Origin: Candidatus Marinacidobacterales bacterium
Lineage (GTDB): Bacteria > Acidobacteriota > Vicinamibacteria > Marinacidobacterales > DATDRI01
NCBI GenBank assembly: GCA_965226495.1
Contig: OZ245365.1
Location: forward strand, 6,208,001 to 6,272,000
DNA: 64,000 nt
Direction: 5' to 3'
Under the pieces are notes generated by a model. That model was not told the DNA's origin. It did not search any database and saw only the letters and a program-made list of their open reading frames with translations. A program made the position numbers and the translations under genes. This document shows, piece by piece, positions 10,474-61,399 of the stretch (the first letter of the stretch is position 1; every line of letters starts with the position of its first letter).

Positions 10474-10827
10474 TGTGCCTTCTATTTATTCATCCGCGCC
10501 GACCCGAACCTGATCGGTCTCCGATCTGCCGGGACTATGCCTGCATGATTTCGTCGTTTGTTCGCGCTCGGCCCTGGGCACGGCCGCAAACACAGACTCT
10601 AAGTTGCTGATTTATGGGCTATTTCAAAGGGACTTATAACGATTGATTGACAGGCATTTCTCAAACCACCACATCTTGTGCTCTCGCACTTTACTACATG
10701 TTGTTATATGTAGAGGTGGGATGATTGGGGTGTCTTTGATAAGCTGCTCAAACGCAAGGGGTTACTAACATTGTCAATCAATCGTTATAAGTCCCATTTC
10801 AAAAGGGCTGAGTTTTGGCACAGGACG
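10474..10827 (+). mobile_element. Non-autonomous rve/IS481-like mini-element (A end to B end) carrying a nested MITE
   Basis: Left end TGTGCCTTCTATTTATTCATCCG; right end GAGTTTTGGCACAGGACG; both recur across the window. Confidence 0.75.
10629..10795. mobile_element. 167-bp MITE (IS1595-like)
   Basis: Perfect 24-bp TIR GGGACTTATAACGATTGATTGACA; 8-bp TSD ATTTCAAA on both sides. Confidence 0.88.
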
Positions 10828-10885
10828 GGATGCTCTCAAGCCTTGCCGGATCCTGGTTGATACAAAATCCGAGGCAAGTGAGGGC

Positions 10886-10979
10886 TGTGCTCCGCAAAAA
10901 GTCGATCCGGCGTTGATTGCGCGGGTTAGACCTACCATAGTCGGCTGCTTCTGGCCGGTTTTCTTTTTTGCGGATCACA
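10886..10979. mobile_element. 94-bp MITE (E family, TGT...ACA)
   Basis: TIR TGTG(C/A)TCCGCAAAAA; inverted copy at 44918-45011. Confidence 0.8.
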
Positions 10980-11030
10980 ACAGCCAGCGGCCAACGTGGT
11001 CAATACCGGAAAATCAGGTGTTGCCTAGCC

Positions 11031-12446
11031 CTAGCTGAAGTCCACCCCGAAGAACAGCACCGCGATGATGATCGCCGCCACGGCCAGCGGCGACACGAAC
11101 TGAATGAAGAACCGCCACGCTCCATAGTTGAACCACCTGGGTTCTGAGCCATCCACGAGCTCCCGCTCGGTGTAATTGCGCGTCAGGAACCAGCCCGCCG
11201 CGATCGTGATCGCAAATCCCCCGGTCGGGAGCATCCAGTTCGACACGAAGTGGTCGACCATGCCGAACCAGCTCGTCTTGCCGCCGAAGAGCATCTGGCC
11301 GAGCGCGCCGCCGAGTTGGAGCTCGGTGATCGCGCCGACACCACCGAACGACAACGCGGCGAGGACCGTGAAGGCAAACACCGCACCGCCACACAGCAGC
11401 GTCGCCGTGGCCCGCGGCATGTGGTGTTCGTCGATCACGTAGGCAGCGACCACTTCCAGTAGCGACATCGTCGAGGTGAGCGCCGCGAGGGCCACCAGCA
11501 CGTAGAAGAGTGGCCCCAGGAATGCCCCGAACGGGACCTCGGTGAAGAACAGCTGCGGCAGCGAGATGAAGAGCATCCCCACAGTGCCCGTGCCGCTGAC
11601 CTGCTCATCCATACCCGGCACGCTGAAGATCACCGAGAACATGATCACCGTGGCCACGAGTGCGATCAGCGTATCGAGCACGACGATGATCGCCGAGGCT
11701 TTCACGATCGACTGATGCTTTGCGATGTACGAGCCGTACGTCACCATCGCGCCCATGCCGAGCGAGAGCGTGAAGAACGCGTGGCCGAGCGCCTCGAGGA
11801 CGCTCCCCCCATCCAACTCGCCGAAGCGCGGCAGGAAGATGAAGCGGAGCGCCTCACCGGCCCCGGCCATCTCCAAGGCGGAGACGAGCAGCAAGACGAG
11901 GATCCCGAAGAGAATCGGCAGAAAGACACGCGCGATGCGCTCGATGCCCTTTTGGACGCCGAAGTAGACGACCGAGACCGTGGCGATACTGAACCCGAGA
12001 GACAAGCCAAGCTGTAGGCCGCCATTGGCCGCCTGCGCACCGAACAGCTCGCCCATCGAGGCGCCCGCCGGGAATCCACCGACCGACCAGCCCGCGGACT
12101 TGGCGAAGTAGAAGAGCGACCAGCCCGCAATCACCGTGTAGTAGCTGAGCAGCAGAAAGCCGCAGAGCACGCCCCAGAGGCCAACGATGCCCCACGCCGG
12201 CCCGATGGCCTGCTTGAGCGCCCCGACCACGCTCTTCTGCGTCGCTCGCCCGATCAGCAGTTCGGCCATCATGATGGGCAGGCCCACGGCGGCGATGCAC
12301 ACGAGGTACACGAGGACGAAGGCCCCGCCGTTGTTCTCCCACGTGACGAACGGGAACTTCCACAGGTTGCCGAGGCCGATCGCGCTCCCGGTCGCGGCGA
12401 GAATTAAGCCGGTGTTCGAACTCCAATGACCGCGCGGCTCTGACAT
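11031..12446 (-). CDS. Sodium-dependent transporter (NSS/SNF family)
   Basis: GSAIGLGNLWKFP, GGAF, AFFTLSLGMG. Confidence 0.95.
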   Translation of the reverse strand: MSEPRGHWSSNTGLILAATGSAIGLGNLWKFPFVTWENNGGAFVLVYLVCIAAVGLPIMMAELLIGRATQKSVVGALKQAIGPAWGIVGLWGVLCGFLLLSYYTVIAGWSLFYFAKSAGWSVGGFPAGASMGELFGAQAANGGLQLGLSLGFSIATVSVVYFGVQKGIERIARVFLPILFGILVLLLVSALEMAGAGEALRFIFLPRFGELDGGSVLEALGHAFFTLSLGMGAMVTYGSYIAKHQSIVKASAIIVVLDTLIALVATVIMFSVIFSVPGMDEQVSGTGTVGMLFISLPQLFFTEVPFGAFLGPLFYVLVALAALTSTMSLLEVVAAYVIDEHHMPRATATLLCGGAVFAFTVLAALSFGGVGAITELQLGGALGQMLFGGKTSWFGMVDHFVSNWMLPTGGFAITIAAGWFLTRNYTERELVDGSEPRWFNYGAWRFFIQFVSPLAVAAIIIAVLFFGVDFS

Positions 12447-12677
12447 GTGTCGTTCTCCGATCGATGGCGTGGTCTACGGGAGGCGATGCGGCCCCAACAG
12501 ATCCCGGCCCGTGAAGTCTCGCCCAGTAGACGTTACGTAAATACTCTAAAGGATTTCTGTCGGACCAGCGAGCGGCACGGCAGTATCGCGCGTCAGCACG
12601 CTACGGAAAGTCATCCGACCGTGGCGGCCGCCACGCACCTGGGTACTTTCGAGTGAACGAACGATTTCGGTCACTCC

Positions 12678-12742
12678 TGAACCGCCCCTGGGGCGGTTCA
12701 GTGCCGCCGCTACCCCAAATTCAACATCCGGCGGGACATCCC
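12678..12742. mobile_element. Fused IS3-type TIR palindrome followed by an IS256 end
   Basis: TGAACCGCCCC-T-GGGGCGGTTCA (matches 21441 and 27548-27558), then CAAATTCAAC...GGGACATCCC as at 48860-48901. Confidence 0.7.
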
Positions 12743-12831
12743 CCCGCGAGCACGGAGGTGATTACAGCTTTGAAGGTTTTCGAGCTTCTCACAAGTTCTT
12801 GTCAATAGGTGTGTAAAAAAGTTCAGGCAGC

Positions 12832-12997
12832 GGTGCTTCCGCCATTAAGTGTTGGTGAGATGACGCTAAGACTTTACGCTGCATTAAATTACAGCCAAAA
12901 TAGCGCTCGCGACCTTCGCCGCGCGCTAAATGGAGCGTAAGCTCTTTTTTTGCAAAGGGATACGTACACATCACCAACAGCAAACAGCGCAAGCACC
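12832..12997 (+). mobile_element. 166-bp IS1-derived MITE (D family), copy 1
   Basis: Ends GGTGCTTCCGCC and GCGCAAGCACC; left end matches the TIR of the IS1 at 59962. Confidence 0.88.
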
Positions 12998-13204
12998 TCT
13001 CAAGCACGTTATTGCGTCGGTGGCCCGGCGGCGACAGTGTGCAGAATTTCCACCGCGTCGAAGACGAGTTCGCAGGGCGGCGCTCTCATGGCTGTCTGCC
13101 CGTCGATACGCGATCTTTTTTGCGGATCACAGGCGGATTACACGGACACGAACGGGACGCCGACCAGTAGTTTTCCGCTCAATCTTAACCTCAATCAGAC
13201 TCCT

Positions 13205-13413
13205 CTAGAAAAGGTACTTTAAGTTCAGGCCGACGCCGAACATTTGGATGTCGCCGACCTCAAGGCCGCCCGACACAGGCTCGCTGCCATCCCTGCGAAG
13301 ATTGGGCGGGTGGCTGCGCAGTGGATCCCAGACAATACTGTCGTCGTTTCGAAAAGAATGAAAGTTAACCCAGCGTCCCTTAACCCCGAGCAGTAATACT
13401 TCGGTGAGCGCGT
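13205..13413 (-). pseudogene. C-terminal fragment of an outer-membrane beta-barrel protein, truncated by an IS
   Basis: Ends FGVGLNLKYLF (terminal-Phe beta-signal pattern). Confidence 0.5.
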
Positions 13414-14698
13414 TGTGCATCGTCAAAACTGCTCCGCCCACGAAATCAAGGACTTACGCTCCGCTTGAATTCCGGGCCGAAGACGGCGAAACTCCGCCGC
13501 TATGCTCAACGTTGTTGTCTTCCTCGTCTCACTTGGCGTCCGTGCCATTCGGGCGATGTGTCGGCGCCGCGCCGACCTGGTGTTGGAGAACGTCGCTTTG
13601 CGGCAGCAAGTGACGGCGCTGAAGAAAGAGCGCCCACGCCCACCGCTCGACGACACGGAACGGGCTTTCTGGGTTGCCCTTCGAGGTTCGTGGCCCGTGT
13701 GGGCGAGCCGCCTGCTCATCGTCCACGCGGACACCGTAGCCCGTTGGCATCGCGACCGATTCCGACGGTACTGGGCAAATATCTCGCAGCGCCGCCATCC
13801 CGGTCGGCCTCGGATTGATGCCGAGATTCGCCGCCTCGTCCGCACGATGGCGCAAGACGGCTGGGGGGCGCCACGCATCCATGCTGAGCTCACCAAGCTC
13901 GGTTTCATCATCTCCGAGATTACGGTGTCGCGATACCTACCGCGGCATCCCGCGGAGCCCGACCAGCTGAAGCGATGGATGGCTTTCTTGCGCAACCATA
14001 AAGACGATATCGCCGCCATGGATCTGTTCACCGTGCCCACCGCGTCGCTCCGGCTGCTGTACGGCTTCTTCGTCATCGAGCACGGCCGTCGGCACATCGT
14101 TCACTTCAACGCCACCTTCCACCCGACGTCTGCTTGGGTTATTCAGCAACTGCGTGAGGCGTTTCCCTACGACACTGCTCCGAAATATCTCATCTTCGAT
14201 CGCGACTTCATCTTTAGCGCTGCGGTCATCGAGTTCATCAAAGCAACGGGCACAAAACCCGTTCGCACTTCGTTTCGCAGCCCATGGCAAAACGGAACTG
14301 CGGAGCGGTGGGTCGGCAGCTGCCGTCGCGAGCTCCTTGAGCACGTCGTGGTTCTCGGCGCATGTCATCTCATCCGGCTCGTGCAAGCTTACATCAGCTA
14401 CTATCACGAGGACCGTTGCCACTTGGGGCTGAACAAGGACACACCGAGCTTGAGAGCGGTCACGCACCGACCGTCTCCTACGGCGAAAGTAGTCGCACTG
14501 CCGCGAGTCGGTGGATTGCACCATCGATACGAGTGGCGAGAGGCAGCCTGAGTCAGCTTGGTCGCTCGCGTTACTCGGCTGGTCGCCGAGAAGTTCGTCC
14601 TCAGCACCTTCCCTCGCGCGCTGACCACGCTCTCCAGCATGTGCTCGAGGGCAGTCCGGGCCTAGAGTCCAGTCCCGGATTAATAATGATGATGGACA
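13414..14698 (+). mobile_element. Complete IS481-like element with integrase-core (rve) transposase at 13502-14551
   Basis: TIR TGTGCATCGTCA / TGTCCATCATCA; DDE motifs AMDLF, FDRD, NGTAER; VGGLHHRY C-terminus. Confidence 0.85.
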
Positions 14699-14769
14699 GG
14701 CCCTTGGCCCAGTCGCTAAGCTGCTGATTTATGGTCTATTTCGAAAGGGCCGAGTTTTGGCACAGGACG

Positions 14770-15089
14770 GGGTCATGGAAAGCGACTCCGGCCACATGGC
14801 TGAAAAACGAGCTGCTCATGGTACTAGTCGGCTGCTAGAGGAACAGGCCGATCCCGCGGCTCGGCTCTCTGACCCAGAAATCCGCCTAACAGCCCTTGAA
14901 GAGCTTGATGAACTCCTTGCCCTCTTCACGGAAGACCAGACTGCTCTCGAACTCCTCCGCCTGAAGGGCGATGGCCTTTCTGCGTCCGGGATTCAGCGCG
15001 AACTCGGCATGGGAAAGACGCAGTACGACACCGTCACCAAGCGGATTCGCCGTCGCCTTGCCAAATACCTATCCGAGGGAGGCCAGTGA
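14770..15089 (+). pseudogene. Sigma-factor region-4-like HTH, 5'-truncated by a B end
   Basis: GLSASGIQRELGMGKTQYDTVTKRIRRRL; stop overlaps the next start. Confidence 0.55.
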
Positions 15090-15628
15090 CCATGGAGCCA
15101 AAGAAACAGAACCGGACCAAGATTAACCGAGCACTACGAGATTGTCTCCTTGAGGCGTCGGAAGGCGAGCTTCGTGAAACACTCGCCGATACAGGACAGG
15201 ACTTCGATTCGCTAGCGGCTCGTGGCCGTGCTGCTGCGCAGCGAGCCCTCGCTAAACTGCCCGACGCCGCAGATGTTCAAGACCTGCACCGCGGCCTCGG
15301 TGCGATCCTTCAGATGCTTCGCCGACGCGAGCAGCTTTCCGCGGACAAGCTTGCTCAGGAGGCCCGCGTCAACGTTTCTGAGTTGCGCCGCATCGAGCTC
15401 GACCCAACGTTCGACCCGAACCCACGCACTATCTTCCAGCTCGAGCAGTACTTCAAGCTTCCCTCAAGAAGCCTAGTGGTGCTGTCCGGCGCCGTTCACG
15501 TCGACGACAATGTGCGCGAGGAGGTCGTCCGCTTTGCCGCGAGTTCCGGGGACATCTCTGGACTTACGAAGGAGCAGCGCAAGCACCTTAACCGATTCGT
15601 GAAGTTCCTTCGAGAGAACACCGACTGA
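15086..15628 (+). CDS. XRE-family HTH regulator (CapH/ImmR-like)
   Basis: LRRREQLSADKLAQEARVNVSELRRIE; translationally coupled to the peptidase. Confidence 0.75.
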   Translation: MTMEPKKQNRTKINRALRDCLLEASEGELRETLADTGQDFDSLAARGRAAAQRALAKLPDAADVQDLHRGLGAILQMLRRREQLSADKLAQEARVNVSELRRIELDPTFDPNPRTIFQLEQYFKLPSRSLVVLSGAVHVDDNVREEVVRFAASSGDISGLTKEQRKHLNRFVKFLRENTD

Positions 15629-16551
15629 TGAAGAACCGGCCGATAGACCCGTTCGCGGCGCAAGATATTGAGGACCAGGTTGACAAGGTTCTGCGTGGTC
15701 TGGGCAACCCAGAGCCACCTTTGGACCTGCGCGACGTGCGCGAGTTGCTCAAACTCGACCTTCAGTTCTACAGCAGCACGAACACCGGACCGCTGCGCGA
15801 GTTCGTGAGCAAGGTTAAGCTGGGGGCGAAGCAGCTCGCGATGAAGCCCACCCTCATCCTCGACTTGGTCCGCCAGGCAGGCTTGAAGGCCCTTTGGCTT
15901 CCTGACAGAAAGCGCATCCTCATCGACGAAGGTATGCCTGACCTCAAGATGCGGCACACAGAAGGCCATGAAATCACACACAGCATCACGCCGCACCACC
16001 GCCTGTTCTTGTTTGGCGATGACCGCGAGACGTTGCGTACCTCGTGCCACGAGAAGCTCGAGGCGGAGGCGAACTTCGGCTCCGGACAGCTCCTTTTCAT
16101 CCGGGGCCGCTTCGTTGCCGAGGCCCATGACCTTCCCCGAACGCTGGCAACCGTTCGCGCACTGGCCAAGACCTTCGGTAACACCATAACGATGACACTG
16201 TGGCGTCTTGTCGAAGAAGCGCACGATGACGAGCCCCTCTTCGGGGTCATCTCTCCGCACCCGAAGTACCTCTGCGACGACTTCGATCCGAGGACACCGT
16301 GTCGCTACTTCGTCGAATCACCGGCGTTCCGTGAGAGCTTCGGTATCGTCACTGAAGTAGCAGCCTTCGAGGCGATCCAAGGCTACACGTCATGGGCACA
16401 TGGCGGCTCATTGGGCGAGGGAGAAGTTGTCTTCGTCAGTCGTGACGATGAACGCCATCGCTTTCACATGGAGACGTTCTTCAACCGTCACGAAGCACTC
16501 ACTCTTGGCGTCTATCTCGGTCCCGTTTGTTCACACGTGGTCGTGCCTTGA
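15628..16551 (+). CDS. ImmA/IrrE-family metallopeptidase (CapP-like)
   Basis: HEITH zincin motif and downstream EAEAN. Confidence 0.8.
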   Translation: MKNRPIDPFAAQDIEDQVDKVLRGLGNPEPPLDLRDVRELLKLDLQFYSSTNTGPLREFVSKVKLGAKQLAMKPTLILDLVRQAGLKALWLPDRKRILIDEGMPDLKMRHTEGHEITHSITPHHRLFLFGDDRETLRTSCHEKLEAEANFGSGQLLFIRGRFVAEAHDLPRTLATVRALAKTFGNTITMTLWRLVEEAHDDEPLFGVISPHPKYLCDDFDPRTPCRYFVESPAFRESFGIVTEVAAFEAIQGYTSWAHGGSLGEGEVVFVSRDDERHRFHMETFFNRHEALTLGVYLGPVCSHVVVP

Positions 16552-16654
16552 AATCGTATTGGCCGATGTCCGGCACCTCCTTGTTTGCGGGCAGAGGGAA
16601 GTAGAACGCAACGCTAGCCTTGAAGGCAGAGACGAGAGCGCGAACAAACAACGA

Positions 16655-16730
16655 ATTCATGCCGGCATGGTGCCGGCAGACCGGAGACTAATCAAGTTCG
16701 GTGCGCGCGGATGAATAAATAGAAGGCACA
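16655..16730 (-). mobile_element. Solo A (left) end of an rve mini-element
   Basis: Reverse complement of the end at 23045-23115. Confidence 0.8.
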
Positions 16731-16801
16731 GGATTTCAAGGAATATCAATCCGAACACTGGATCGAGGAACTTGAAAAGACGATTCAAAGGAGGGTTTCC
16801 A

Positions 16802-17059
16802 ATGACCAAACCTGACACCGACAAAGGCTTCGACATCATCGTCAACGGCACAAACTATCCCGTCCCCAACGACGAGGTCTCATTCGATCAAGTCGTCGAT
16901 CTCGCGTATCCCAACGGAGGTCGAGGTCCACTGATCAAGTATACGGTGGATTTTTACAACGGCGCCGGTCGGCCACCGGAAGGCAAGCTGACCGCAGGCC
17001 AGGAAGCCAAAATCAAAGACGGGACCGTGTTCAATGTCACGCGCACTGATCGCTCGTAA
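16802..17059 (+). CDS. Multiubiquitin-domain (beta-grasp) ubiquitin-like protein
   Basis: IIVNG...SFDQVVDLAY...YTV...IKDGTVFNVTRTDRS; GGAGG RBS. Confidence 0.8.
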   Translation: MTKPDTDKGFDIIVNGTNYPVPNDEVSFDQVVDLAYPNGGRGPLIKYTVDFYNGAGRPPEGKLTAGQEAKIKDGTVFNVTRTDRS

Positions 17060-18230
17060 TGCGGATCTGCGAAGACTCGAGGAAGAGGGTTACACGCTTC
17101 GCATCGTTGACGACGCGTATCTCTTGATCGAGAACGTCCCGTATGTCACGGCTCAAGGCGATGTCCAGGAAGGCACCTTGGTCATGGAACTAACTTTGAG
17201 TGGAGATCGCACGGTCCAACCAACCACCCATGTCGCCCGCTGGACCGGCGAGTTTCCTTACGAAGCCAGCGGCGACAAGCTCCTTGCGTTGATTCGCGAA
17301 GATGCAACAAAAGGTTTGCTCTCCGAATCCATTCCGCCCGTGTACCAGCTTTCGGCCAAGCCTGACAGGGGCTATAAAAACTACCACCACAAGGTAACTA
17401 CCTATGTAGACATACTCAGCCGTGAGGCTCGTTGCATCTCCTCCGATTCGACGGCCCAACAGTGGAAGGTCGTTGCCGACCGCGACGACGCCGACAGCGT
17501 CTTTCTCTTTGCGGACACCGCATCCGCCCGGCAGAACACTGCCGACCTCGCCCGAAAGCTCCAGCACGAGCAAGTAGCCATCGTCGGTGTAGGTGGTACT
17601 GGCTCCTATATCCTCGACTTGATTGCGAAGACATGGGTGCGCGAAATCCATCTCTTCGACGACGACCGATTTCTCCAACACAACGCATTCCGGTCGCCCG
17701 GCCCCTTCTCCCGAGACGAACTCGAAGGAGGACCGTTCAAGTCGATATTTCATGCCGAGAGATACTCGCGCATGCGCAAGGCACTCATCGCATCCACCAC
17801 ATGCATTGACGAGACCAACGTCCAGCAATTAGGCGTATTCGACACGGTTTTTCTCTGTATGGACGGGCATCCGATCAAGGCTCAGATCCTAGAGACCTGC
17901 ATGGCCCACGACACCTTACTCATCGACGTCGGTATGGGCCTGTACCGCGTAAACGACTCGATCGCAGGCGTCATCCGGACAACCACCTTCTGCCCGGAAC
18001 ACCACCACCACGCCGAGGCCTGCATAGACCTGGCCGGCGACGATGCGCCAGGCGAGTACGAGCGGAATGCCCAGCTTGCCGAGCTGAATGCGCTGAACGC
18101 CGCGCTCGCTGTCATCAAGTGGAAGAAAGCAAGGGGCTTCTACAACGACCTAACACGGGAACTCAACAGCGAATACGTCATTGACGGCGACAAGCTCATC
18201 AACTCCTACTGCCTAGACGAACCCTCGTGA
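17034..18230 (+). CDS. ThiF/E1-like adenylyltransferase with an N-terminal DUF6791-like domain
   Basis: GVGGTGS, FDDD..QHNAFR, LCMD, DVGMG, AELNALNA. Confidence 0.85.
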   Translation: MSRALIARNADLRRLEEEGYTLRIVDDAYLLIENVPYVTAQGDVQEGTLVMELTLSGDRTVQPTTHVARWTGEFPYEASGDKLLALIREDATKGLLSESIPPVYQLSAKPDRGYKNYHHKVTTYVDILSREARCISSDSTAQQWKVVADRDDADSVFLFADTASARQNTADLARKLQHEQVAIVGVGGTGSYILDLIAKTWVREIHLFDDDRFLQHNAFRSPGPFSRDELEGGPFKSIFHAERYSRMRKALIASTTCIDETNVQQLGVFDTVFLCMDGHPIKAQILETCMAHDTLLIDVGMGLYRVNDSIAGVIRTTTFCPEHHHHAEACIDLAGDDAPGEYERNAQLAELNALNAALAVIKWKKARGFYNDLTRELNSEYVIDGDKLINSYCLDEPS

Positions 18231-18674
18231 AGCTGCGCCAAGTCACGCCGGAATTCGTGGACGAGATCCCGCGAGAGTTAGACCCAGGCAAGCTTTATGT
18301 CTGTTGTCGATACCGTGCGGTCAAGCACCTGTGTGCGTGTGGCTGCGGTGCTGAGATCAACACCCCGTTACATCCCACCGGCTGGACGCTTACGTGCGAC
18401 GGCGTTTCAGTCAGCTTGTCACCGTCCATCGGCAATTGGAGTGAGAAGTGCCAATCCCACCTGGATCATTAACAACAAAATCCAATGGGAACCAAAGTAT
18501 CCAAGACACAAAATTCTGCAAACCAGAAGAGCGCGGGACTTGGAACTGGAACAGTATTTCAGCGCCAATACCAAGCCCGAAACGGGTCACTTTGAGCCGA
18601 AACGGCTCCTCATTTTGACGTCGATGCGACGCTGTCTCACACGAATCTGGCACTGGATCTTGCGTCGTCGCTAG
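18227..18674 (+). pseudogene. DUF6527-like Cys/His protein, frameshifted near 18460
   Basis: HLCACGCG, SLSPSIGNW, CQSH, then WIINNKIQW in another frame. Confidence 0.75.
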
Positions 18675-18710
18675 CCTTGGTCGCTACTCCCTGACCGAGG
18701 GAGTTGACCC

Positions 18711-18863
18711 CGTCCTGTGCCAAAACTCGGCCCTTTTGAAATAGACCACAAATCAGCAGCTTAGACGCCCTTGGATGATGGTGGCGCTCTCCATAATATA
18801 GATGAACTCGACGATGGCCCGTCGCGCGGGTCTTAGAGTGCGTTTGTATTCTTGGACACGACG
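18711..18863. mobile_element. B end (reverse) fused to a diverged C-family MITE
   Basis: CGTCCTGTGCCAAAACTC at 18711; 18763-18863 resembles the reverse complement of 49258-49360. Confidence 0.7.
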
Positions 18864-18981
18864 CGCAGACCTACCCGCCAGGTCCGCCCGTTGCGGACGC
18901 ATTCCGGGCCGACTTCGAAGCTGAGAAGGAAAGGCTTGCGCGAGAGCTCGGGCCCGCGCCGCCCACCTAGGGTGGCCGTCG

Positions 18982-19740
18982 CTACCGACGAATGATCTGC
19001 TGCTTCAGGAGCGCGTCGACGGCGACGACGAGATTCTCGAAAGGCTGCTCCGTACTCGGCGCGGGTTGCAGCCGTCCTTCGCGATCGATTAGGTAGTTGG
19101 CGGGGTATCGCGCCGTCGTCTGATAAATCTCGGGGACGTCCCCCTCGATCGTCAGAAGGGGGTAGCTCACCGACAGGACGTTTTCTTCGAAGTCGAGCTG
19201 CGTTTCGAGGTCCTCTGTGGAGAGGCCGAAGACCATGAATCCCTGTTTCTTGCGTTCCTGATAGAGCTTGTCGAGACCCGGCATTTCCTTGCGGCACGGC
19301 GGACACCAGGTCGCCCAAACGTTTACGAGCACGACCTTTCCTCCATGCTCGTCGAGACGATGAGTGTTGCCGTGGATGTCCGCCGTCGAGAAAGGCGGCG
19401 CCTCGACGTCACTGAGCGCCAGATTCCGCGCCTGCGTAGCGCGCTCGACGACGCCTCGAATCGGAAGGAACACGAGACCGAGCGACAAAATGCCGAGCAT
19501 CAGGCCCACCTTGCTCACGGTTGAGAAGGCTCCTTTGCGGTGGTCGGCGAGCGCGAGGACGAGAGTGATGATGCCCGGCAAGGCCATCGCGATCGCGACT
19601 ATGGAGAGACGGAAGACGAAGTCGGCGTCCCTGTCGGCGCTCGCGCGCGTCAGGCTCCGATAGACGAACAGGCCAAGACCCGCTGCCGCAAAGGGCGACG
19701 CGACGCCGGCCCATAGAGTCCGAAAGTACAGCTTCGACAT
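18982..19740 (-). CDS. Membrane-anchored TlpA-family thiol-disulfide oxidoreductase
   Basis: WATWCPPC, three N-terminal TM helices, LIDREG. Confidence 0.9.
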   Translation of the reverse strand: MSKLYFRTLWAGVASPFAAAGLGLFVYRSLTRASADRDADFVFRLSIVAIAMALPGIITLVLALADHRKGAFSTVSKVGLMLGILSLGLVFLPIRGVVERATQARNLALSDVEAPPFSTADIHGNTHRLDEHGGKVVLVNVWATWCPPCRKEMPGLDKLYQERKKQGFMVFGLSTEDLETQLDFEENVLSVSYPLLTIEGDVPEIYQTTARYPANYLIDREGRLQPAPSTEQPFENLVVAVDALLKQQIIRR

Positions 19741-19980
19741 AACGAAGCCATTCTAGCGTGAGACGGTTCCGTAGCGTGCTAGGGTATTGTCAGGTGCTAT
19801 CAAGTTGAGACGGCGACTGACACAATGAGCCGATGAACAGCCAGCCATCCCGCTACCACATTAATAAGGGGCAATGCCGTTCGCCGAATGATGGAGGCCA
19901 AAAGCGAGCGTGGCAGTAGCCGCGGGTTGGCTTTACAGGCGTGGCCTACCTTAAAGCGTTGCGACGAGGGCGCGTTGCTA

Positions 19981-20387: not shown

Positions 20388-20401
20388 CCCTACCGCGGTC
20401 C

Positions 20402-20833: not shown

Positions 20834-20920
20834 TCCATGTACCGCGCAGTCGCCGCTCGGAGCTCCCGACTCGGACCCCTCATTCGTCCTCTTGCGCTCC
20901 GACTGGCATGAACAGCATCC

Positions 20921-21019
20921 AAATAACGAACCGGGGAGTTGCGGCCGGGGGCCGGGCAAAAGAGACAGACTACAGCTAATGCAGTGCGCCCGGCCGTCAG
21001 CTTCAATGGCGCGTTAGAA
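20921..21019 (-). other. Putative integron attC site
   Basis: Minus strand TTCTAAC overlapping the stop codon, GC-rich imperfect palindrome, CGTTATTT at the distal end. Confidence 0.6.
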
Positions 21020-24064: not shown

Positions 24065-24065
24065 C

Positions 24066-53624: not shown

Positions 53625-53896
53625 GGTTCCATTGAGGCGCGATTTCTCGTCACGCGCACGAGCTGACAGAAGATGTTGCAGATCGAGGACCAGACAGGCT
53701 CTCTCGGTGTCGGTCTCGAAGCGGACATTCTGGTCGTCGAGTGCAATCTCTTCGAGCATATCCGCACCATCCAGGACCGCGCATGATCATCAGTAACGGC
53801 GAGATCGTGCGGAAGCGTTTCTGAGCTCAATTGCGGCGCCGGGGGATCGCCACTCTCAGCGGGGCACCTTCTCCCGTTTCGGGGTCCAGCGCTTCC

Positions 53897-54012
53897 CGTC
53901 CTGTGCCAAAACTCGGCCCTTTTGAAATAGGCCATAAATCAGCAACTTAGCACACTGGCAAAAATTATTTCCCATTCTTGGATGGACGCAATGTGTAGTT
54001 CCACTTCGGCAG
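53897..54012 (-). mobile_element. B end abutting an ISAzo13 3' end fragment
   Basis: 53951-54012 resembles 57951-58012. Confidence 0.75.
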
Positions 54013-54076
54013 CGAAGTGGGTCGTTGGATGTGTCCCGAGGTTCGTGGAAAAAGAACGGCACCCTCCACTCCGTCA

Positions 54077-54717
54077 TCAGGGTATCAGATCAGGCGGCAA
54101 ACCTCCGCGTGTTCGAGAACCTTGCTCAGACGTTGGCAGCCGTCGATGCGCCGTAGTTGAATCTGGCCAGAGGCCGATAAGCCCAAACAGCAAAGCGACC
54201 GCGGACTCCTCGCTGGAGAACGACGCTTGGGTTTTCGTCCGACGTCGAAACTCGCGGTTGAGATTCTCCAGAGCATTGGTCGTTCGAATCGATTTCCACA
54301 TGGCACTAGGAAATTCGTAGAAGGTCAGCAGCTGATTACCGGCCTCCTCTAGGCTTCGGACGACGGCCGGCGCGAGAGGCGTCCATTTGGCGACGAGCTC
54401 GTCATAGGCTTTGCGAGCATCGATCCCGTTCTTGGCGTAGACGATCCGGTTGTAGTCACGCCGGAGCTCACGGCGTGCGTGCGCCGGGCAATGTTCGAGC
54501 AAGTTGGCGCGCTTGTGCTCGGTACATCGCTGCAACCGGCACCCCGGCCACTTCTCCAGCGCTTTCGTCAGCCCCTTGTGGCCGTCGCTGATCACTAGCT
54601 TGGGAGCCCGGAGTCCTCGAGCCTGGAGTCCCTCCAGCACGGAGCCCCAATGCGTCGAGGCTTCGCTCACCGCCACACGCAATGACAACAGACGTTTCTG
54701 CCCGTCTGGCGCGACCC
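54077..54717 (-). pseudogene. IS256-family transposase fragment
   Basis: ISDGHKGL, QRCTEHK, IRTTNALENLNREFRRR. Confidence 0.85.
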
Positions 54718-54751
54718 CGTCCTGTGCCAAAACTCGGCCCTTTTTAAAAGA

Positions 54752-56275
54752 GCCTCTCCTGCCATTTCAGTGGATCCTCTCGAGGGTGAGACCGCCACAG
54801 TTTAGGTAGACGAGACTGATGAGAGCTTCGGCAGAGTGGAGTCCAAAGCTGCGGTGGCTCAGCAGCCGGATTTTGTTGTTCATTCCTTGGAGTCGGCCGT
54901 TGCTGAGTCTCCACGTGACCCACGCGATGACGCCATCGAAGTGGCTGCGGATCATCTTCGCCGCGCGTTTGACGGGCTCTATCCTCGAGCTCATAGCGCG
55001 CCGCAGCCATCCTCGGAGAAACTTCTTGGCCCATGTCTCGGTTTTGTAGGTGTAGAGGTCCATGAAGTCGTCGCGCAGAAGCATGGCGCGGTAGAGGCGA
55101 CGATTAGCTCGCACCTGCTCGCGGAGCACCCGTTTGTCTTTCGCGCTGCGGTTGTGTTTGGCCTTGAGAAGGGGAAACTTGGTGTTCTTGAGGTTGCGTC
55201 GGGCAGTCCCTTTGAGCTCGCGCACCAGCTCGCGCCGGGTCTTATCCACGGCCTCGTTCAGATGCTTGACGATGTGGAAGCGGTCAAAGATCACCCGTGC
55301 CTGAGGAGCCTTTTTGCCGACGACAGTTATGTACGGCTCCCACATGTCCATGCTGACCGCTTCGAGCTCCGCGGCTCTTTGTGGTCCGAGCTTGCGGAAA
55401 AACCGCAGCAGCGTCTTGGCCTTGCGCTCCTTTCCCGCCCAGACGACCCGGCCGCTGAGATGGTCTATTACCACTGTTAAGTACTTGTGGCGTTTGCGGT
55501 AGCTGATCTCGTCCATCCCAATCACCCGCAATCCATCGAGCTCGCGCCGCTCATCCCGCTGCTCGGCAACCACTCGCTGGATGATCCGTCGCACCGAACG
55601 CCACGTCACTCGGAAATAGTTCGCTACGGCGCTGACGTCCGTCCTCTGTGCCAGCCACGCTACCTCTTGCTCGAAGCTTTTGGTAAAGCGGCTTCCCTTG
55701 TCGGCCCAAGGCACCTTTTCTCTGACCACTCCACACCGCCGACATACCACTCGTCGGATCGAGTAGCGAAGATAGGTCCGGACTCCGAACAGGTCCAAGT
55801 GCCGCCAGTAGCGATTGTAGCGATCTTTGTTCTTGCGGACCTTTCGTCCGCAAATCCCGCACAGAGGCTTCCTCCTCCGTGGTACTACATCCACCACCAC
55901 TCTGGCTTTGTCCGCCTGGAAGTGGAAACCTCGGACCCACAGGCCTTGCAATCCGATGAGCTTGTTGACTAACGTAGTAACGCGCATCGCGGGAACGCTC
56001 TTTTCTCTTTCGGAAAAAAAGATTCTAGCGTTCTCGCCGATGCGCATCTACACATGGCTTACCCTCTCAACCCACGGGCCTCACCAAATGCCACTGCCCC
56101 TCAGCGGGAGACGAGGCTGTGGGAAACGCCCCCACGGTTCTGGTCGTTCAGACCTTGCTCACGACTGAGTTCTCTTCGAAGCCTGGAAGGGCGTTTTCCA
56201 TAGCCTCCACTAATCGAGCCCCCCCTTCCTTATTCCATATGAATTAATCTTTCTTGTATATATATCAGGAGGGGC
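54752..56275 (-). mobile_element. ISL3-family element, transposase 54767-55987
   Basis: CGIC/CRRC zinc finger, GMDE, MDMW, DRFH, SNGRLQGMN; imperfect TIR GCCTCTCCTG/GCCCCTCCTG. Confidence 0.85.
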
Positions 56276-56488
56276 CTGTGGGCGCTCGTGGGAAACGCGA
56301 AGCGTTTTCCAAGCGATTGTGGAAAACGCCGCTCCACGTTTGTACGTGCTCACAACCTTTCCCTAAACGCCTCTCTCGCCCGGAGTTTCCGGCGTTTTCC
56401 ACAATCGCGGCAGCGTCCATAGGCCATGCCCTCCAACACAAATCAGATCCCCCGAAACGACAGGAGAACCGTATTTTTGGACACGACG

Positions 56489-56880
56489 GCCTTGAGGAAG
56501 GTGCTCCACGACATGCTCTTGCCCCGCTCCGGAGCCGACGCGATACCGTGCTCGGCGAGGAGCCTCTTGATGGTGTTGCGTCCAAGTTCATGTCCTAGGT
56601 TCTTGAGTGCGCCCCGCAGGCGCGTATATCCCCACGTCGGGTTCTCTCTCGCCACGCGTACAATGAGCTCACGGATATCCTTCGCCGTCGGAGGTCGGCC
56701 TGGGCTCCGGTTCTTGCTGCCATCGTACTTGGCTGCGATGAGGTAGCGGTACCAGCGCAGAAGCGTAGCGGGTGTGGCAACGGACGCAATCTGGGCCAGC
56801 GCCTCGCGGCCTAAAGCCTGGGACTTGACGGCGAGCCTACGCCGGTCGTCGTCAGAGAGCTTGAGACGCTTGCCCCGAAG
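56489..56880 (-). pseudogene. rve transposase internal fragment
   Basis: [22 protein letters not shown]; cut by a C end at 56488. Confidence 0.8.
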
Positions 56881-57691
56881 CCCGGCGCTCGGGCCGCCGT
56901 AGCCGCCCAGGCCGAGGCTGCGCCCCACCGACAGGCCGACCGTGAGCGGACCCCGCCTGTAGTCGGCCCCGAGCATCGTCGTGCGCATGTCGCCGTTGAG
57001 CGACAGCGCCCCCTCCATGCCCCCGAAGTACGACCGGGAGCTGCGGCTCCATACCGACACGACCCCGCCGTGCTGCTCGCGGTTCAGCTCGAACTCCGAG
57101 TTGGAGAACAGGTCGCCGCCCGGCAGGAACGAGCCGAATCCGCCGCCGTGCACGCTGCCCGATGGCCCGTAGTCCGTCATGGCGGCCGCGCCGCCGGCGC
57201 CGCGGGAGCGAGGCTTCCGGGCGCGGTTCGCCGGCCGGGAATTCCGGCCGGGCATGGAACGGGACTTCGCGCTCGGCTTCCTGTCGCAGTTCGGGCAGCC
57301 GATGGGCGCAACCGCGATGGGCGCGAACCCGGTGGGCGCCGCATCAATGAGCGCTGCCTCGATGGGTGCGTCCCCGATGGGAGCACGCCCGTCCGGCCAC
57401 GGCGCCGCCATCCGCTGCTCGACGTGCTCGACCACCTGCTCGGCCGTCGCCCGCCCGAACCGCGCCAGCAGCGCCGCCGGCATCAGGTCCGCGTTCTCGA
57501 TCGTCCCGGTCGCCTCGGCGTCCTCCAGCCACGCCCCCGCCGCGTTCGACAGTGCGAGCACGAACGTCTCCTCGCCCTCGTCGTGCGCGTCGTCGAGCAC
57601 CGTGACCTCGATGGTCTTGCTCGACTCGCCCGCCTGGAACGTCAGCGTGCCGCTCGCCGCCCTGTAGTCCTCGCCCGCCTGCGCGCTGCCG
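56881..57691 (-). pseudogene. Internal fragment of a second Calx-beta/autotransporter protein, with an internal inversion
   Basis: [36 protein letters not shown]. Confidence 0.8.
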
Positions 57692-59922
57692 TGTGCCTTC
57701 TATTTATTCATCCGGGCGCCCCAAACTTGATTAGTCTCCGGTCTGCCGGCACCATGCCTGCTTGATTTCGTCGTTTGGTCGCGCTCTCATCTCCGCCTTC
57801 AAGGCTCGTCGCGAGCTGGCTCTCGACAATGTCGCTCTTCGGCAGCAGCTCGCCGGCCTCCCCCGTTCGGTGAAACGGCCGCGGCTCTCGAACGTCGACC
57901 GCGGGTTTTGGGTAACTGTAGAGCCTAAGGGCCCTTGGCCCAGTCGCTAAGGACCGTGGCAGAAATTATTTCCCATTCTTGGATGGACGCAACGTGTAGT
58001 TCCACTTCGGCAGGGAAGAGGATTTTTTGATGTTGAGTAGCGCCATCGCAGGGTCCGAGATTTTGATGCCCTTAGGATACTGCTTCTTGACGAGACGGGC
58101 GTTAACCTTGAGCCCAGTTTTGGTCTTGGTGGTCCGTATGAAGTTCAGGATGGTTTCGTAGCTATCGAGCGGCCGGCCCGCCCAATTCTTGCTAATCTCG
58201 CTGAACAGGCGGTGCTCGATTGGGTTCCACTTGGACGCACCTGGTGGATAGTGTGCGACCGTGACGTCCAAACCGTGCTCGTTGCACAGCTTGTGCTGGA
58301 TGCCGTGTTTCCATGCACGGCGGGTTGCGCCGTTGCTTCCGCCAGTGTCAGCTACGACAAGTAAATGTTTGCGGCCGGGAAAACGCTTCTGACCTTCAGA
58401 GCGCCACCACTTCTCGATGCATTCGACTGCGAATTGCGACGTGTCGTAAGACGTTCCGACATACACGGTGCCTCGATTACTCTGGAGATCATAGATGCCG
58501 TATGGGATTGCGACCCCATCTGCCATGGAGCGAAAGTCGTGGTCGTTGACGGCATCGCTCTTTTGAGCCCAGACGCGTCCTGGGTTCTTGAAGCGTCCGA
58601 CCAACTCTTTCTTCTTGGTGTCGACACTCAATATGGGATTGCCACGTCGGCTAAAGCGCTCCCGTAGCTGTGTGATGTTGGCGAACTGGGCGTCGCGAGT
58701 TGGAGGAGAGCCATTCGAGATCTTCTTTTTGTTGGTCCGGAGTGAGAAGTTCATCTGTTTAAGCAGCTTCGCGACGGTTTTGCGACTGACGCGAATGCCC
58801 AAGGCCGAGAGTTCGGCAGCTATTTTTTTCGTGGTCTTGCGAGTCCATCTCAGACCGCTGACGGGATCGCCAGCGACCTCGTACTTCATAAGTTCTTCGA
58901 TCGCCGCGATGACTTCTGGCGTTTTTTTTCGACAGCTTTGCGGCCGGCACCCGCTTTTCGGACCCGCTCCACATTCACATCATGCTCAAGTAGCTCGCGA
59001 CGGCCCCGAGCCACAGTGCTAACGTCGAGCCCGAGGATCTCCGCCATCTGGCGGTCACCGCCATAACCTAACTTGAGAGATTCAAGCCCCGCATACACAC
59101 GCCTTTCTCTCTCATCGAGCAGGCTAAAGAAAAGGATGATGGCTGCTTTGAGCTCATCGGGTAGGACGTCTTGAGCAGCAATACTCTTGGACACAGAGGG
59201 TTGCGCTTCCCAAACACGTCGGCTGGCTATTTGCTGTTCACGAATGCTCCTCTTCGGAGAGAAGTAGACATTGCGATTTCTAATCCGAGTGCGGCGAAGT
59301 CTTTTCTCCCAGGCCAATTTCGGCAGCACATCTTTGGTCCCAACCCTAACAATGGCATCAAGCTCCTCCACCGCGTAGCCAGCCTCGGAGGCGTTCACCA
59401 GTCCTTCGGCCGTGGCGACGAGTGTCCCTCGACTTGAAAAGCCGACGGACCGAATCCACCACAAGCCGTTCTCATCAAACTCCGCGAGCTCTCGGAGCGT
59501 GTAGAAACGTCCACGGTGCGAATAGCTGGTGCAGTAGTCGAGCTCTCTCAGTTTCCGGAACACCGTCAGGTCAGCGACAGTCCCCACTGTCTTCTTGAGC
59601 ATGTCCATGGTGGCGATGAGACGTTTGGCAAACAACCCCCGCAGGCGGTCAATGTCAGAGTTACGAATCATAATTCGTAACTCTAACACACAATGACCTA
59701 CGTCTCCAGGGGCAAGCTCTCAAAGAGCTGCAAATAGCTCCATTTGACGCGGTCCCGCCAGGCGATCCGCTTCCCGCCGGCTCGGATCGTTATCCCTGCA
59801 GCAGATGAATTACGACAAAGACTTGGTAGTTATTCTTGCCCCGACCCTAAGGGCCCTTGGCCCAGTCGCTAAGCTGCTGATTTATGGTCTATTTCAAAAG
59901 GGCTGAGTTTTGGCACAGGACG
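57692..59922 (+). mobile_element. A-B mini-element interrupted by ISAzo13
   Basis: A end at 57692, rve 5' fragment, B end completed at 59922. Confidence 0.75.
57951..59847 (-). mobile_element. ISAzo13-family element; ORFs 58886-59689 and 57966-58889 overlap at an A8 run
   Basis: SVDTKKKELVG, DTGGSN, PPGASKWNPIEHRLFS; imperfect TIR. Confidence 0.9.
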
Positions 59923-59961
59923 AGAGTTCGATGACAACGAGCACATAGTAGGTCACGAGCC

Positions 59962-61161
59962 GGTGCTTCCGCCATCAAGTGTTGCTACGCGGCTGCGGGC
60001 AGTGGTTCAGGTGCGGAAGAGACCGGGTTGCGCGCCCCAGTGAGCAGGAAAACCTCGATCCGCGACCACAAAGGAATCGTCGTCGCCAAGAAGATGTCTC
60101 GAAAGGTGAGCCGTCGAATGGTCAGACCGGCCTGCATAGCCGGAGTTCGGATCTCACGTCCGAACTTCAGAGCTCCGTGCGGTCGGACGAAGTTGTAATA
60201 GCAACGGAGCAACTCCAGGTGCTCATCGAGCCTCTCCGTCGAGCGAGCGTGGGAAAGCGTTCGTCTCGAAAGGTATGCCGAGCTTTGCCGGATGGTCAGA
60301 TTCAACCGCTCGATGAACGACGTGTTCAATGTCGAGGAGTCCTCGGAGTTATTGAGCGCGTCTTCGAATCGCCACGCGGCTCCGTGCAGCGCTCTGCGTT
60401 CGACCTTGATGATGCGATCGTTCCTGCGCGTTTTGAGGACTTGGCCGTAAAGACACGCTGGCCCGAAGAAGCGACGGATGACCCTCTGGTAGAATTCGAA
60501 TCCATCCGTAACGATCAGGGGAAGACGCCCGAAATTCATCCGCTTCGAAAGGTCGCGAAACAGAGCGTGAGTGTTCCGGTAGCTTCGCCTTCCCGTCACC
60601 GTCGATGGCCAGAGCCGAGACCAGACCTCGATCGTAACGAAGACCCAACTCGGCGTCTTCTTGTTGCCCGCGAACGTGCGAATCTCGTCGGCTTGAAGCT
60701 CTTCGGCAGCGAAGCCAGCGATCCTTGTGTGGTTGAATCGACGACACACTTGGGCTGCCTTCTCAAGCCAGCGGGCGACGGTGTTCCAGGCAATCCCTTC
60801 GATCCGGGAAATCGAGGAAATGCTGACACCCTCGACTCTGAGAGCGATGACCCCGTCGAAAGTAGCTCTTCGATGTTGGAGACGGTAGTAGGGCGTGCCT
60901 TTCGTCGAGGAGGACGTCTTTCCGCACTCGCCGCACCGGTATCGACGGCGTTTCCCAGACCTGGTTCGGTAGAATCCGTGGCGAACGATGTTTCCGGAAC
61001 TGACTTTGCCCCGCAACGGACATGCGAGATTGAAACATCTGCTATTCTTCACTTCGGCTCGGCCCTGACGATGAGAGAACTGTGTCTTCGGAAATCAGGC
61101 TCAAACTCTAGCACGCGAGCGGGTTACGCGGCGGCCACCAACACTTGATGGCGGAAGCACC
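59962..61161 (-). mobile_element. IS1-family element, transposase 59985-61052
   Basis: Perfect 23-bp TIR GGTGCTTCCGCCATCAAGTGTTG; zinc ribbon, QADE, TDG, TSFIERLN. Confidence 0.9.
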
Positions 61162-61349
61162 GCCGCGACGCCGCATAGGAGTTCGGGCGCGCCAGTTGGA
61201 CGGAACGGATGGTCTGGAGGAGAGGTCTGCTCGGGAGCGCCTATCGCAGAGCCAGTGCCGCGTCGGCTGGTCTCCGCGAATCTCGAGAACGCCTCCAGGA
61301 TTCGAGCTTTCGGCTCCGTTCGCATTTTCGAACACGACGGGGTGCCGAG

Positions 61350-61399
61350 TGTCCAATTTTCGTCCGCCACAAATGTGCAATTTACAGCCGCCGCTAACA
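61350..61399. mobile_element. IS21-like terminal sequence
   Basis: Repeated CAATTT...CCGCC subterminal motifs ending in AACA. Confidence 0.5.

Follow-up and report, generated by a model that had tools for sequence, protein, structure and literature searches.

Insertion sequences (IS) are known to reshape bacterial genomes in several ways. In the IS-expanded genomes of host-restricted bacteria, such as Bordetella pertussis with its IS481, Burkholderia mallei, Shigella and Orientia tsutsugamushi, rearrangement breakpoints lie at IS copies. Genes or gene fragments are captured by the one-ended or rolling-circle transposition of IS91/ISCR elements, and likewise by Pack-MULEs and Helitrons. A published model, as outlined in PMC4196232, describes translocatable units of IS26 and resistance regions interspersed with IS26. 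Here we analyze positions 10,474-61,399 of a 64,000-nt window of a Candidatus Marinacidobacterales genome, a mosaic of genes, gene fragments and ends of IS and of miniature inverted-repeat transposable elements (MITEs). A first-pass annotation had described it as a patchwork of unrelated pieces cut at element ends, and this description was borne out by a scan for element termini, by the foreign fragments and by the truncated genes. The region looks like an extreme case of familiar transposon-driven scrambling, not like a new DNA-capture machine. IS-bounded breakpoints, MITE swarms and mosaic islands are already known; what is unusual is how far the scrambling has gone, that it is confined to a single zone and that its elements are nearly identical in different genera and families of one community.

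The window comprises bases 6,208,001-6,272,000 of a single 6,337,479-base contig (59% G+C). Its first 10.4 kb are ordinary core DNA, with hemE, hemH, a protoporphyrinogen-oxidase-like gene, tRNA-Gln, tRNA-Ser(GCT) and genes for GNAT, TPR, Memo-like and M20 peptidase proteins, and the character of the sequence changes from 10,474 on. The feature had been thought to end at 61,399; instead, the mosaic continues past this point as far as the contig end and is taken up again at the contig start, and 10,474-61,399 is the left third of a repeat-rich zone of about 150 kb located at both contig ends. A blastn comparison of the window with its own genome gave 721 non-self high-scoring segment pairs (HSPs) in 60 repeated stretches. 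For 10,474-61,399, 535 of 590 non-self HSPs fell in four 50-kb bins (6.20 Mb to the contig end plus the first 50 kb), and 24 more in one small locus at 1.35 Mb. In 5-kb bins, repeats made up a fraction of 0.2-0.9 between about 6,215,000 and the contig end and within the first 30,000 or so bases, and close to zero elsewhere. Thirteen terminal motifs cut from the window were then used in a scan allowing up to five mismatches. The window held 51 matches, corresponding to 49 distinct termini, all between 10,476 and 61,161; genome-wide, 111 of 126 matches fell in 6,218,000 to the end plus 1 to 33,000, about 2.4% of the genome. The ends are not uniformly distributed, and the density of mobile elements is far above the genome background, as in an IS/MITE-rich genomic island. 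The left border of the mosaic lies 4.5 kb from the host tRNA-Ser. No integration module consisting of an integrase and an att repeat at a tRNA was identified: neither a tyrosine integrase (PF00589; nearest match at 43,080-43,595) nor a type IV secretion system (T4SS) coupling protein was found in the island, and its borders carried no direct repeats of a tRNA end. On the lack of both genes from the island, the remnant of an integrative and conjugative element or of a plasmid was rejected as a candidate; relaxase, VirB4 and replication genes were not searched.

IS of at least seven families, together with MITEs, have inserted into the island and into each other. Transposases of IS5 (two species), IS1380, ISL3 and ISAzo13 scored above the NCBIfam cut-offs, IS256 was present as a C-terminal fragment, and the IS1 and IS3/IS481 matches were below cut-off. 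By family, the terminal matches in the window were RE 11, LE 6, X3 7, terminal inverted repeats (TIR) of IS1 type 10 (D3a) and 4 (D3b), IS5a 2+2, ISx 1+1, ISAzo13 2+1, F11 2 and F10 2; the ends counted previously (11 B, 8 C, 7 E and 6 A) come close to those of RE, LE, X3 and the ten of IS1 type. The LE end (TGTGCCTTCTATTTATT...) carries the start of a transposase gene, and an intact 339-aa rve-type transposase with the same N-terminus is encoded at genome 9300-10319. RE (...GAGTTTTGGCACAGGACGGGG) and X3 (...TTTTTGGACACGACG) are two related right ends. RE was ruled out as the right end of ISx, since ISx copies in a genome of the same genus, G002, end at 14698. LE and RE form MITEs of about 155-360 bp at 10474-10831 (+), the left edge of the repeat-rich region, at 32974-33128 (+, 155 bp, subfamily b) and at 1.35 Mb. 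This last locus (genome 1,352,500-1,360,600) also carries one 166-bp MITE and two other island repeats, and its LE/RE MITE abuts, by eye, an apparent tRNA 3' end. The outer termini are exact and the inner ends are ragged, LE pieces measuring 29-266 nt and RE pieces 31-72 nt. Nested in the MITE at 10474-10831 is a 167-bp F11 MITE (10629-10795) with a 24-bp TIR and an 8-bp duplication, ATTTCAAA, whose empty site is preserved in contigs skipping from 10625 to 10802. Two longer LE...RE pairs occur at 44610-45324 (+, 714 bp, enclosing other repeat pieces) and at 57690-59926 (+), the latter interrupted by an ISAzo13-family element (57954-59846, transposase in two frames). The interiors of the four LE...RE pairs consist of other repeats, not of captured pieces of host genes. 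Inside the MITE, the ISAzo13 element is flanked by a direct duplication of 27-28 bp (57926-57953 and 59847-59874), where a few bases are usual.

ISx (13414-14698, +) is a 1285-bp IS3/IS481-like element with the termini TGTGCA...GGACA, a 349-aa rve_3 transposase and no target duplication. The IS3/IS481 family has TG...CA termini and a short target duplication (ISfinder ranges). The ISx transposase matched Pfam rve_3 (35.7, cut-off 26.5) and stayed below the NCBIfam models of both families (IS3, 85.8 versus a cut-off of 160; IS481, 81.7 versus 224); judged from sequence, ISx and the LE/RE/X3 elements are distant relatives only of IS3/IS481. A 166-bp MITE with inverted ends of IS1 type, D3, lies without target duplication at 12832-12997 (+). 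Further copies are found at 29836-30002 (-), 34138-34303 and 34808-34973, with a fragment at 32166-32204; these "D MITEs" of the earlier annotation are exact elements of 165-166 bp, of which 20 exact copies were retrieved from G001, the second genome of the genus. Their inverted ends match those of an IS1-like element at 59962-61161 (-), which has a 355-aa open reading frame (ORF) and 23-nt inverted ends of D3 type. Members of the IS1 family make target duplications of 8-9 bp. The IS1-like transposase scored 79.7 in NCBIfam IS1 (cut-off 100) and D3 showed a duplication in 2 of 25 copies, so the assignment of both to IS1 falls short on either count.

These ends had been proposed to be the parts of an undescribed acquisition system in which mini-element ends act as the repeats of an array and environmental DNA provides kb-sized spacers. 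The dense and precise outer termini at segment borders, the foreign genes cut in the middle and the missing duplications would suit such a system, as would the six solo RE ends of the window, which all share one direction. Nothing in the data requires it, and we regard it as extremely improbable. The ends lie at irregular distances, tens of bases in some places and several kb in others, have variable lengths and occur in both orientations, and the regular direct repeats of constant length that define a CRISPR-like array were not found. RE ends point five one way and six the other in the window, and their orientations are mixed over the whole island. Several junctions are simply one element nested in another. 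There is no conserved adjacent gene, and of the two genes sought in the island neither the tyrosine integrase nor the coupling protein turned up; the only recombinase belongs to a repeat unit of its own and is broken in the window. Moreover, the ends derive from several unrelated IS families, and the same MITEs are dispersed in dozens of copies in sister genomes. Rfam recognized no RNA family apart from three tRNAs, which together with the lack of a tyrosine recombinase in the island also speaks against an integron (attC sites were not searched for as such). We infer that the short ends are leftover termini of ordinary IS and MITEs and not working parts of a dedicated capture system.

The island has received DNA of co-resident lineages: from a genome of another family, from a congener, and as a gene whose protein matches are of Gemmatimonadota type. 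Core DNA is 86-87% identical to the two genomes of the same genus (G001 and G002), whereas island pieces are 97-100% identical, and thus the content of the island is closer to other lineages than the core is. The block 45101-48326 (3.2 kb) is 99% identical to G002:C3:659010-662235, and 33195-34013 is 98.4% identical to G002. ISx is present in at least 37 full copies in G002 and, among the matches listed, in 4 in G001, at 98-99%. IS5a (1085 bp; GGCGTTGTTGCAC...GTGCAACAACGCC) has at least 38 counterparts, 99-100% identical, in G053, a genome from the same order but from a different family. Two copies of it in direct orientation (38318-39402, +, without duplication, and 43152-44236) flank a foreign chromosomal block at 39858-42265 with tRNA-Ser(GCT) (39858-39952, -), a Memo gene (39995-41278, +) and a PIN gene (41343-41771, -). 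The tRNA-Ser and Memo genes (39858-41278) are 91.8% identical to G053 in nucleotides, with homology starting exactly at the tRNA 3' end, and the captured Memo protein shows 91% amino acid identity to G053 versus 54% to the host's own Memo. The block had been recognized as a diverged homologue of a core locus of the host, which holds: relative to that locus, the tRNA-Ser is 98% and Memo 67% identical in nucleotides. IS5a itself is much closer to G053 (99-100%) than the G053-like genes that it flanks (90-92%). G053, otherwise collinear at this locus, lacks the PIN stretch (about 44 nt in place of about 540 nt), which looks, from this comparison, like a small insertion of a toxin-antitoxin-type gene. 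The Calx-beta gene described below is 90-91% identical in nucleotides to two places in G053.

The SNF-family transporter (11031-12446, third-position G+C (GC3) 0.89) is intact and lies in a segment at 10880-12677 (-). Its protein is 99-100% identical in several metagenome-assembled genomes (MAGs) titled Ca. Marinacidobacterales, with two copies each, 92-95% in Vicinamibacterales MAGs and 65-82% in many MAGs of Gemmatimonadota/Longimicrobiales. A second copy (96.9%) is found in this genome at 6,330,301-6,329,010. In the Ca. Marinacidobacterales MAGs the segment is bordered by the same MITEs, its left end varying by up to about 130 nt and its right end by up to about 200 nt, and one other MAG (L031) also has the RE-to-SNF junction of the window. 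This identical junction in another species implies that at least some modules came ready-made. Host loci share 65-76% identity with the GMC-DUF885 pair, with DegT and the gene beside it, with the PMT genes and with AhpC; on this similarity, these pieces look like chromosomal DNA of more distant relatives. In G002:C3 the tRNA-Gln, the tRNA-Ser and the Memo-M20 genes, neighbours here, lie in three distant places (2.65, 5.06 and 5.43 Mb), each bordered by island-type DNA. The annotation would have given up its finding had all fragments come from the host and had the ends been evenly spread; since the fragments are not all host-derived and the density is uneven, the finding survives on these counts.

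Truncated genes are part of the mosaic: a GMC oxidoreductase, a DegT gene, IS256 pieces, three rve_3 pieces, a serine recombinase in two frames and an ADP-ribosylglycohydrolase remnant. The GMC fragment (27761-28075) covers profile positions 81-138 of 139, the C-terminal 58 positions; it precedes a whole DUF885 gene (28079-29710), and together (27671-29710, +) they are a diverged copy, 74% identical in nucleotides, of the host locus at 4.378-4.381 Mb. The DegT fragment is N-terminal (47911-48420, -; profile 9-91 of 360) and lies in the block 45101-48326 next to a PMT glycosyltransferase gene (46349-48019). The ADP-ribosylglycohydrolase remnant (31923-32075, +) covers only the first 24 profile positions and is below the Pfam cut-off. 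In a Pfam search of 20 small unassigned frames, only DegT, IS256 and ADP-ribosylglycohydrolase pieces were recognized. Of the cut genes listed previously, those of GMC, DegT and ADP-ribosylhydrolase stood and the frame of the Calx-beta gene does start in a MITE, but the PMT glycosyltransferases are whole, and the "sigma" and "beta-barrel" pieces had no Pfam match in the ORFs tried. Whole genes are in fact at least as common as truncated ones, and comprise those for SNF, HTH, M78, multiubiquitin, E1-like, AhpC, CxxCxxCC, DUF885, DoxX, methyltransferase, YGGT, Memo and PIN proteins and two or three PMT-type glycosyltransferases. The visible differences in G+C style were confirmed, GC3 being 0.86-0.89 for SNF, Calx-beta and 56,443-57,600 and about 0.65-0.72 elsewhere. 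The rest of DegT (profile 92-360) and the GMC N-domain were found neither in the island nor elsewhere in the genome, and the genome also lacks the rest of an IS1380 copy that is cut by IS5a. Inversion-type scrambling, which would keep both halves of a gene, is excluded for these three cases; because the missing halves are not elsewhere in the genome, the pieces point to deletion, or to arrival as fragments.

We consider it probable that the region is a horizontally fed sink of IS and MITEs, which deletions and recombination among repeat copies have reshaped. A sink with deletion and rearrangement at transposon ends was among the earlier suggestions, and it fits the concentrated ends, the foreign fragments and the missing halves of DegT and GMC. 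The bacterium lives in a dense sponge-associated community, a habitat that rests on run labels (several of them sponge metagenome) and on the near-identical contigs of run X1, with 1-2 differences. In such a setting, IS-associated deletions would have removed parts of genes and of older elements, and recombination between near-identical repeats, both within the genome and with incoming repeat-bearing DNA, would have swapped flanks. Deletion and flank exchange together would leave almost every element at a breakpoint and without a matching target duplication. Relatives of ISx in the chromosome, about 80% identical, agree with this: both of the two tested lie at synteny breaks relative to G001 or G002, which suggests that flank exchange at IS copies is general in the genus and not specific to the island. 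Unrelated flanks on the two sides of elements are seen in the sister genomes too.

Several observations weigh against this explanation, and most of them concern target duplications. Repeats of at least 3 nt between the two flanks of a copy were sought with a slack of 2 nt, and mismatched flank pairs provided the null. Own-flank repeats were found in 1 of 21 copies of ISx (20 from G002 plus the window copy; null 0.17), in 2 of 25 copies of the 166-bp D3 MITE (20 from G001 and 5 from G000; null 0.14) and in 1 of 9 copies of IS5a (null 0.10). Duplications, said earlier to be missing from the IS5, IS1, IS481-like and D elements, therefore do not exceed chance in any of the three families tested (4 of 55 copies), and by eye they are absent from the IS1380 element, IS5b and the IS1-like element. 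The same script recovered, as positive controls, the 8-bp duplication of the nested F11 MITE and the 27-28 bp of ISAzo13. If recombination alone had erased the duplications, some recent copies should still have theirs, and none do above chance. One flank was a recognizable repeat in 13 copies (4 ISx, 7 D3 and 2 IS5a), and in none of the 13 did the other flank continue that repeat (by eye). The two flanks of every testable copy therefore come from different loci, as had been claimed, and this is more uniform than slow decay predicts. Three pairs among the nine IS5a copies are in direct orientation, 4.5-5.3 kb apart, and enclose different cargo of 3.4-4.2 kb. Finally, among seven chromosomal relatives of ISx, five had no clear duplication and two were ambiguous. 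These families may thus insert without a duplication, in which case the argument from missing duplications would be neutral.

The same results are what iterative capture through cointegrates or translocatable units would leave, a route in which an IS or MITE copy with adjacent DNA, released from one replicon as a circle or brought in on one, joins a resident copy of that element, as IS26 does, and stays unresolved without a new duplication. Rounds of such joining would yield a patchwork of alternating elements and cargo. The absence of duplications above chance in 55 copies of three families, the 13 of 13 copies joining non-contiguous DNA and the direct IS5a pairs with different cargo all suit it, as do the local clustering of element copies and a cargo from other lineages. 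We nevertheless think this route unlikely to be the explanation. No IS6-family transposase was found among those classified (IS5, IS1380, ISL3, IS256, ISAzo13, IS1-like and IS3/IS481-like), the island not being exhaustively classified. Three unrelated families behave alike, which argues for a process at the level of the host or the region and not for the chemistry of one enzyme. Most ends are truncated solo pieces of 31-120 nt, not complete substrates, and the outer flanks of the three IS5a pairs lack a duplication too. When the left and right flanks of 20 of the at least 37 G002 copies of ISx were compared with each other, there was only a weak excess of 3-nt matches (17 versus 6.2 expected), due to GGC and ACC, and no excess at 4 nt or more; the corresponding comparison for IS5a gave, by eye, one 4-nt match in 81 pairs. 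Joining the flanks of the 55 copies in silico recovered no uninterrupted empty site in G000 plus the comparison loci and did recover the F11 control; as this database is small, the negative carries little weight.

Two features of the assembly also weigh against the sink explanation. The contig starts inside an IS5b copy (genome 1-428, 99.3% identical to window 26186-26613) whose remainder is missing from the other contig end. The two parts of the island may therefore not adjoin and the size of the zone is a minimum; circular closure, and hence island size, is unproven by the contig ends, and sequence may be missing between the parts. In addition, short-read contigs all end inside repeats, and none bridges a whole repeat. 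Both features would also be expected if the region were partly a chimera threaded through repeats common to co-occurring genomes of a metagenome, as would its position at both contig ends, the 97-100% identity of its repeats to other genomes of the order and the summed contig depths of neighbouring segments, which differ by orders of magnitude. Such an artefact is very improbable for the following reasons. The segments average about 1 kb and the MITEs 155-360 bp, far below the length of long reads. No block shared with G001, G002 or G053 exceeds 3.2 kb, the neighbours of such blocks differ, and no long stretch equals another genome. DNA of island type sets in about 80 nt behind the M20 gene in G002 as well, and the RE-SNF junction recurs in L031.

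Independent contigs bear on the same point. Twenty rows from 12 studies, some of them runs labelled sponge metagenome, contain part of 14800-24700, and contigs of four runs were aligned on 10400-30399. For single-copy segments, contigs with 0-3 differences reach into the adjoining ends (X15, 27580-29861; X18, 15432-16645; X1, 19067-20010); such junctions recur with as few differences in contigs of three further runs, from three other studies, which argues against a chimera. The HTH/M78 segment (14774-16615) has near-identical contigs in three runs. Contigs of run X1 leave 15069-16402 and 27742-29742 uncovered, which is no evidence of absence. Single-copy stretches had a summed contig depth of 4-75, and repeat families, the SNF gene and the serine-recombinase unit one of 500-10,000. 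Such depth adds up all organisms and is not a copy number, but it hints that the samples contain the latter sequences in far greater abundance than this genome.

The region, probably an IS and MITE sink reshaped by deletion and recombination, offers a base-pair view of a shared pool of elements that links co-resident symbiont genomes, along with which kb pieces of the neighbours' chromosomes travel. The same elements are found at 97-100% identity in genomes whose core is about 86% identical, or which belong to another family. The uniform lack of duplications, with every testable copy at a breakpoint, is unusually clean, and it sets insertion followed by shuffling against joining of the cointegrate type. 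Under the former, the locus would be a good example of a known process; under the latter, capture of the IS26 kind would be more widespread than thought. It is doubtful, and in our view rather improbable, that three unrelated families (the IS3/IS481-like IS, IS5 and the IS1-type MITE) habitually join unrelated DNA without duplication, through transposition or the recombination machinery of the host. Were this so, the joining would be conservative, end-targeted or of cointegrate type; the copies would act as community-wide docking sites at which kb pieces from neighbours are serially added to a tolerated zone, and the IS26-like mode of capture would extend beyond the IS6 family and to MITEs.

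The remaining features are given in the order of the window. Outside the mosaic, beside tRNA-Gln, a short repeat at 5642-5837 matches up to 55 places of the genome in blastn and shows an internal periodicity of 60 nt; it is a different, genome-wide repeat family. An RE end fragment of 75 nt (14699-14773, +) abuts ISx. It is followed by a single-copy segment (14774-16615, +) with a small ORF and genes for a helix-turn-helix (HTH) protein (15086-15628) and an M78/IrrE-like peptidase (15628-16551), by an LE fragment of 117 nt (16616-16732, -, outer terminus at 16732) and by another single-copy segment (16733-18705, +) encoding a multiubiquitin (16772-17059) and a DUF6791-ThiF E1-like protein (17034-18230); the proteins of both segments were identified with Pfam. 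PADLOC gave weak matches across 14774-18705, HTH_VI and capP for the HTH and M78 pair and E1-E2 for the multiubiquitin and E1-like pair. Together the two pairs may represent a defence module of ubiquitin-like type and its regulators, which the LE fragment interrupts. A solo RE end (18706-18775) and an X3 piece (18776-18865), both on the minus strand, precede the AhpC/redoxin gene (18982-19740, -; 70% identical in nucleotides to a host paralogue at 5.98 Mb), near which two X3 ends are located (19977-20017 and 20325-20387). An IS1380-family element (21463-22997, +) has a 457-aa transposase and imperfect inverted ends of 30 nt. At 23043-23455 (+) an LE end with the first 410 nt or so of an LE-type IS, including the N-terminus of the transposase, is cut off by the next element.

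That element is a 2.5-kb repeat unit (23452-26006, +) with an RE end, a DUF2924 gene and the gene of a large serine recombinase that changes frame near 24340. Contigs of three of the four runs have one more C after 24343, with which the two parts of the recombinase share one frame. A second unit at genome 6,294,181-6,296,736 has an intact 560-aa frame at 6,294,8xx, and an RE end starts both copies. In three runs the unit reached summed depths of 6,000-10,000 versus 4-75 for its single-copy neighbours; the element may be very common in the community. IS5b, the second IS5-family element (26003-27092, +; 343-aa transposase), is followed by a C-terminal rve_3 transposase fragment (27091-27569, +). 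At 29989-30491 (+) come another rve_3 fragment (29989-30306), a repeat piece common to 61163-61311 and an X3 end (30441-30491). A single-copy segment (33129-34043, +) lies between two RE termini facing inward, and the solo RE end at 34044-34137 (-) directly abuts a D3 MITE. The gene with four Calx-beta domains and an autotransporter beta-domain (34906-38169, +; G+C 67-72%) has an open frame that begins inside the D3 MITE at 34808-34973. An IS1-like left-end fragment (38213-38317, +; 100% identical to 59961-60066) is cut by IS5a, and the open frame of an Ig-like gene (Big_1-type, weak match; 42591-43151, -) runs into the second IS5a copy.

Further to the right, a 580-nt fragment of an IS256-family element (48323-48902, +) had, among the matches listed, 29 copies in G002 and 33 in G001 at 98-100%; this IS is hugely expanded in the sister species and is represented here by fragments only. 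Next to it, ends are piled up at 48946-49386: an RE of 39 nt, an F10 end, a 175-nt serine-recombinase fragment and three X3 ends. The stretch 49948-53759 (-) holds a PMT_2 glycosyltransferase gene (651 aa) and a 619-aa gene without family match, 65-71% identical in nucleotides to host loci at 4.10 Mb and 0.71 Mb. At 53893-54748 there are an RE end, an ISAzo13 left-end fragment (53953-54032), an IS256 C-terminal fragment (54077-54730, -) and an RE end of 35 nt. The ISL3-family transposase gene (54767-56047, -; 426 aa) is single-copy in the genome, and no terminal inverted repeats were found for its element.

Among the systems with which the island can be compared, integrons and CRISPR arrays share with it only the idea of storing foreign DNA serially between repeated sites; here there is no tyrosine integrase and neither repeats nor spacing are regular, the repeats being transposon termini of several families. 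As in capture by IS91/ISCR, Pack-MULEs and Helitrons, gene fragments lie beside a single transposon end. However, the ends are those of DDE-type elements, the LE...RE interiors lack captured pieces of host genes, and the only IS91-type transposase found is at the far border (genome 29,864-31,042). Genomic islands and plasticity zones linked to tRNAs resemble this one in foreign composition, in the load of mobile elements, in the nearby tRNA-Gln and tRNA-Ser and in a captured block that starts at the 3' end of tRNA-Ser, and differ from it in that here no integrase or conjugation gene and no direct repeats of a tRNA end at the borders were found. The likeness to IS26 regions lies in the patchwork split by element copies, the absence of duplications at individual internal copies, the cargo from other replicons and the adjacent deletions. 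Candidates for the whole direct copies that separate cargo in IS26 regions are the three pairs among the nine IS5a copies; the island is otherwise built from several unrelated IS families and MITEs, mostly as truncated solo ends in both orientations, and no IS6-family transposase was identified. With IS-expanded genomes, lastly, the region has in common near-identical IS in high copy number, synteny breaks at IS, pseudogenes and fragments, and a host-associated lifestyle; unlike in those genomes, its elements are confined to a zone of about 150 kb, and much of the material in that zone is recent foreign DNA.

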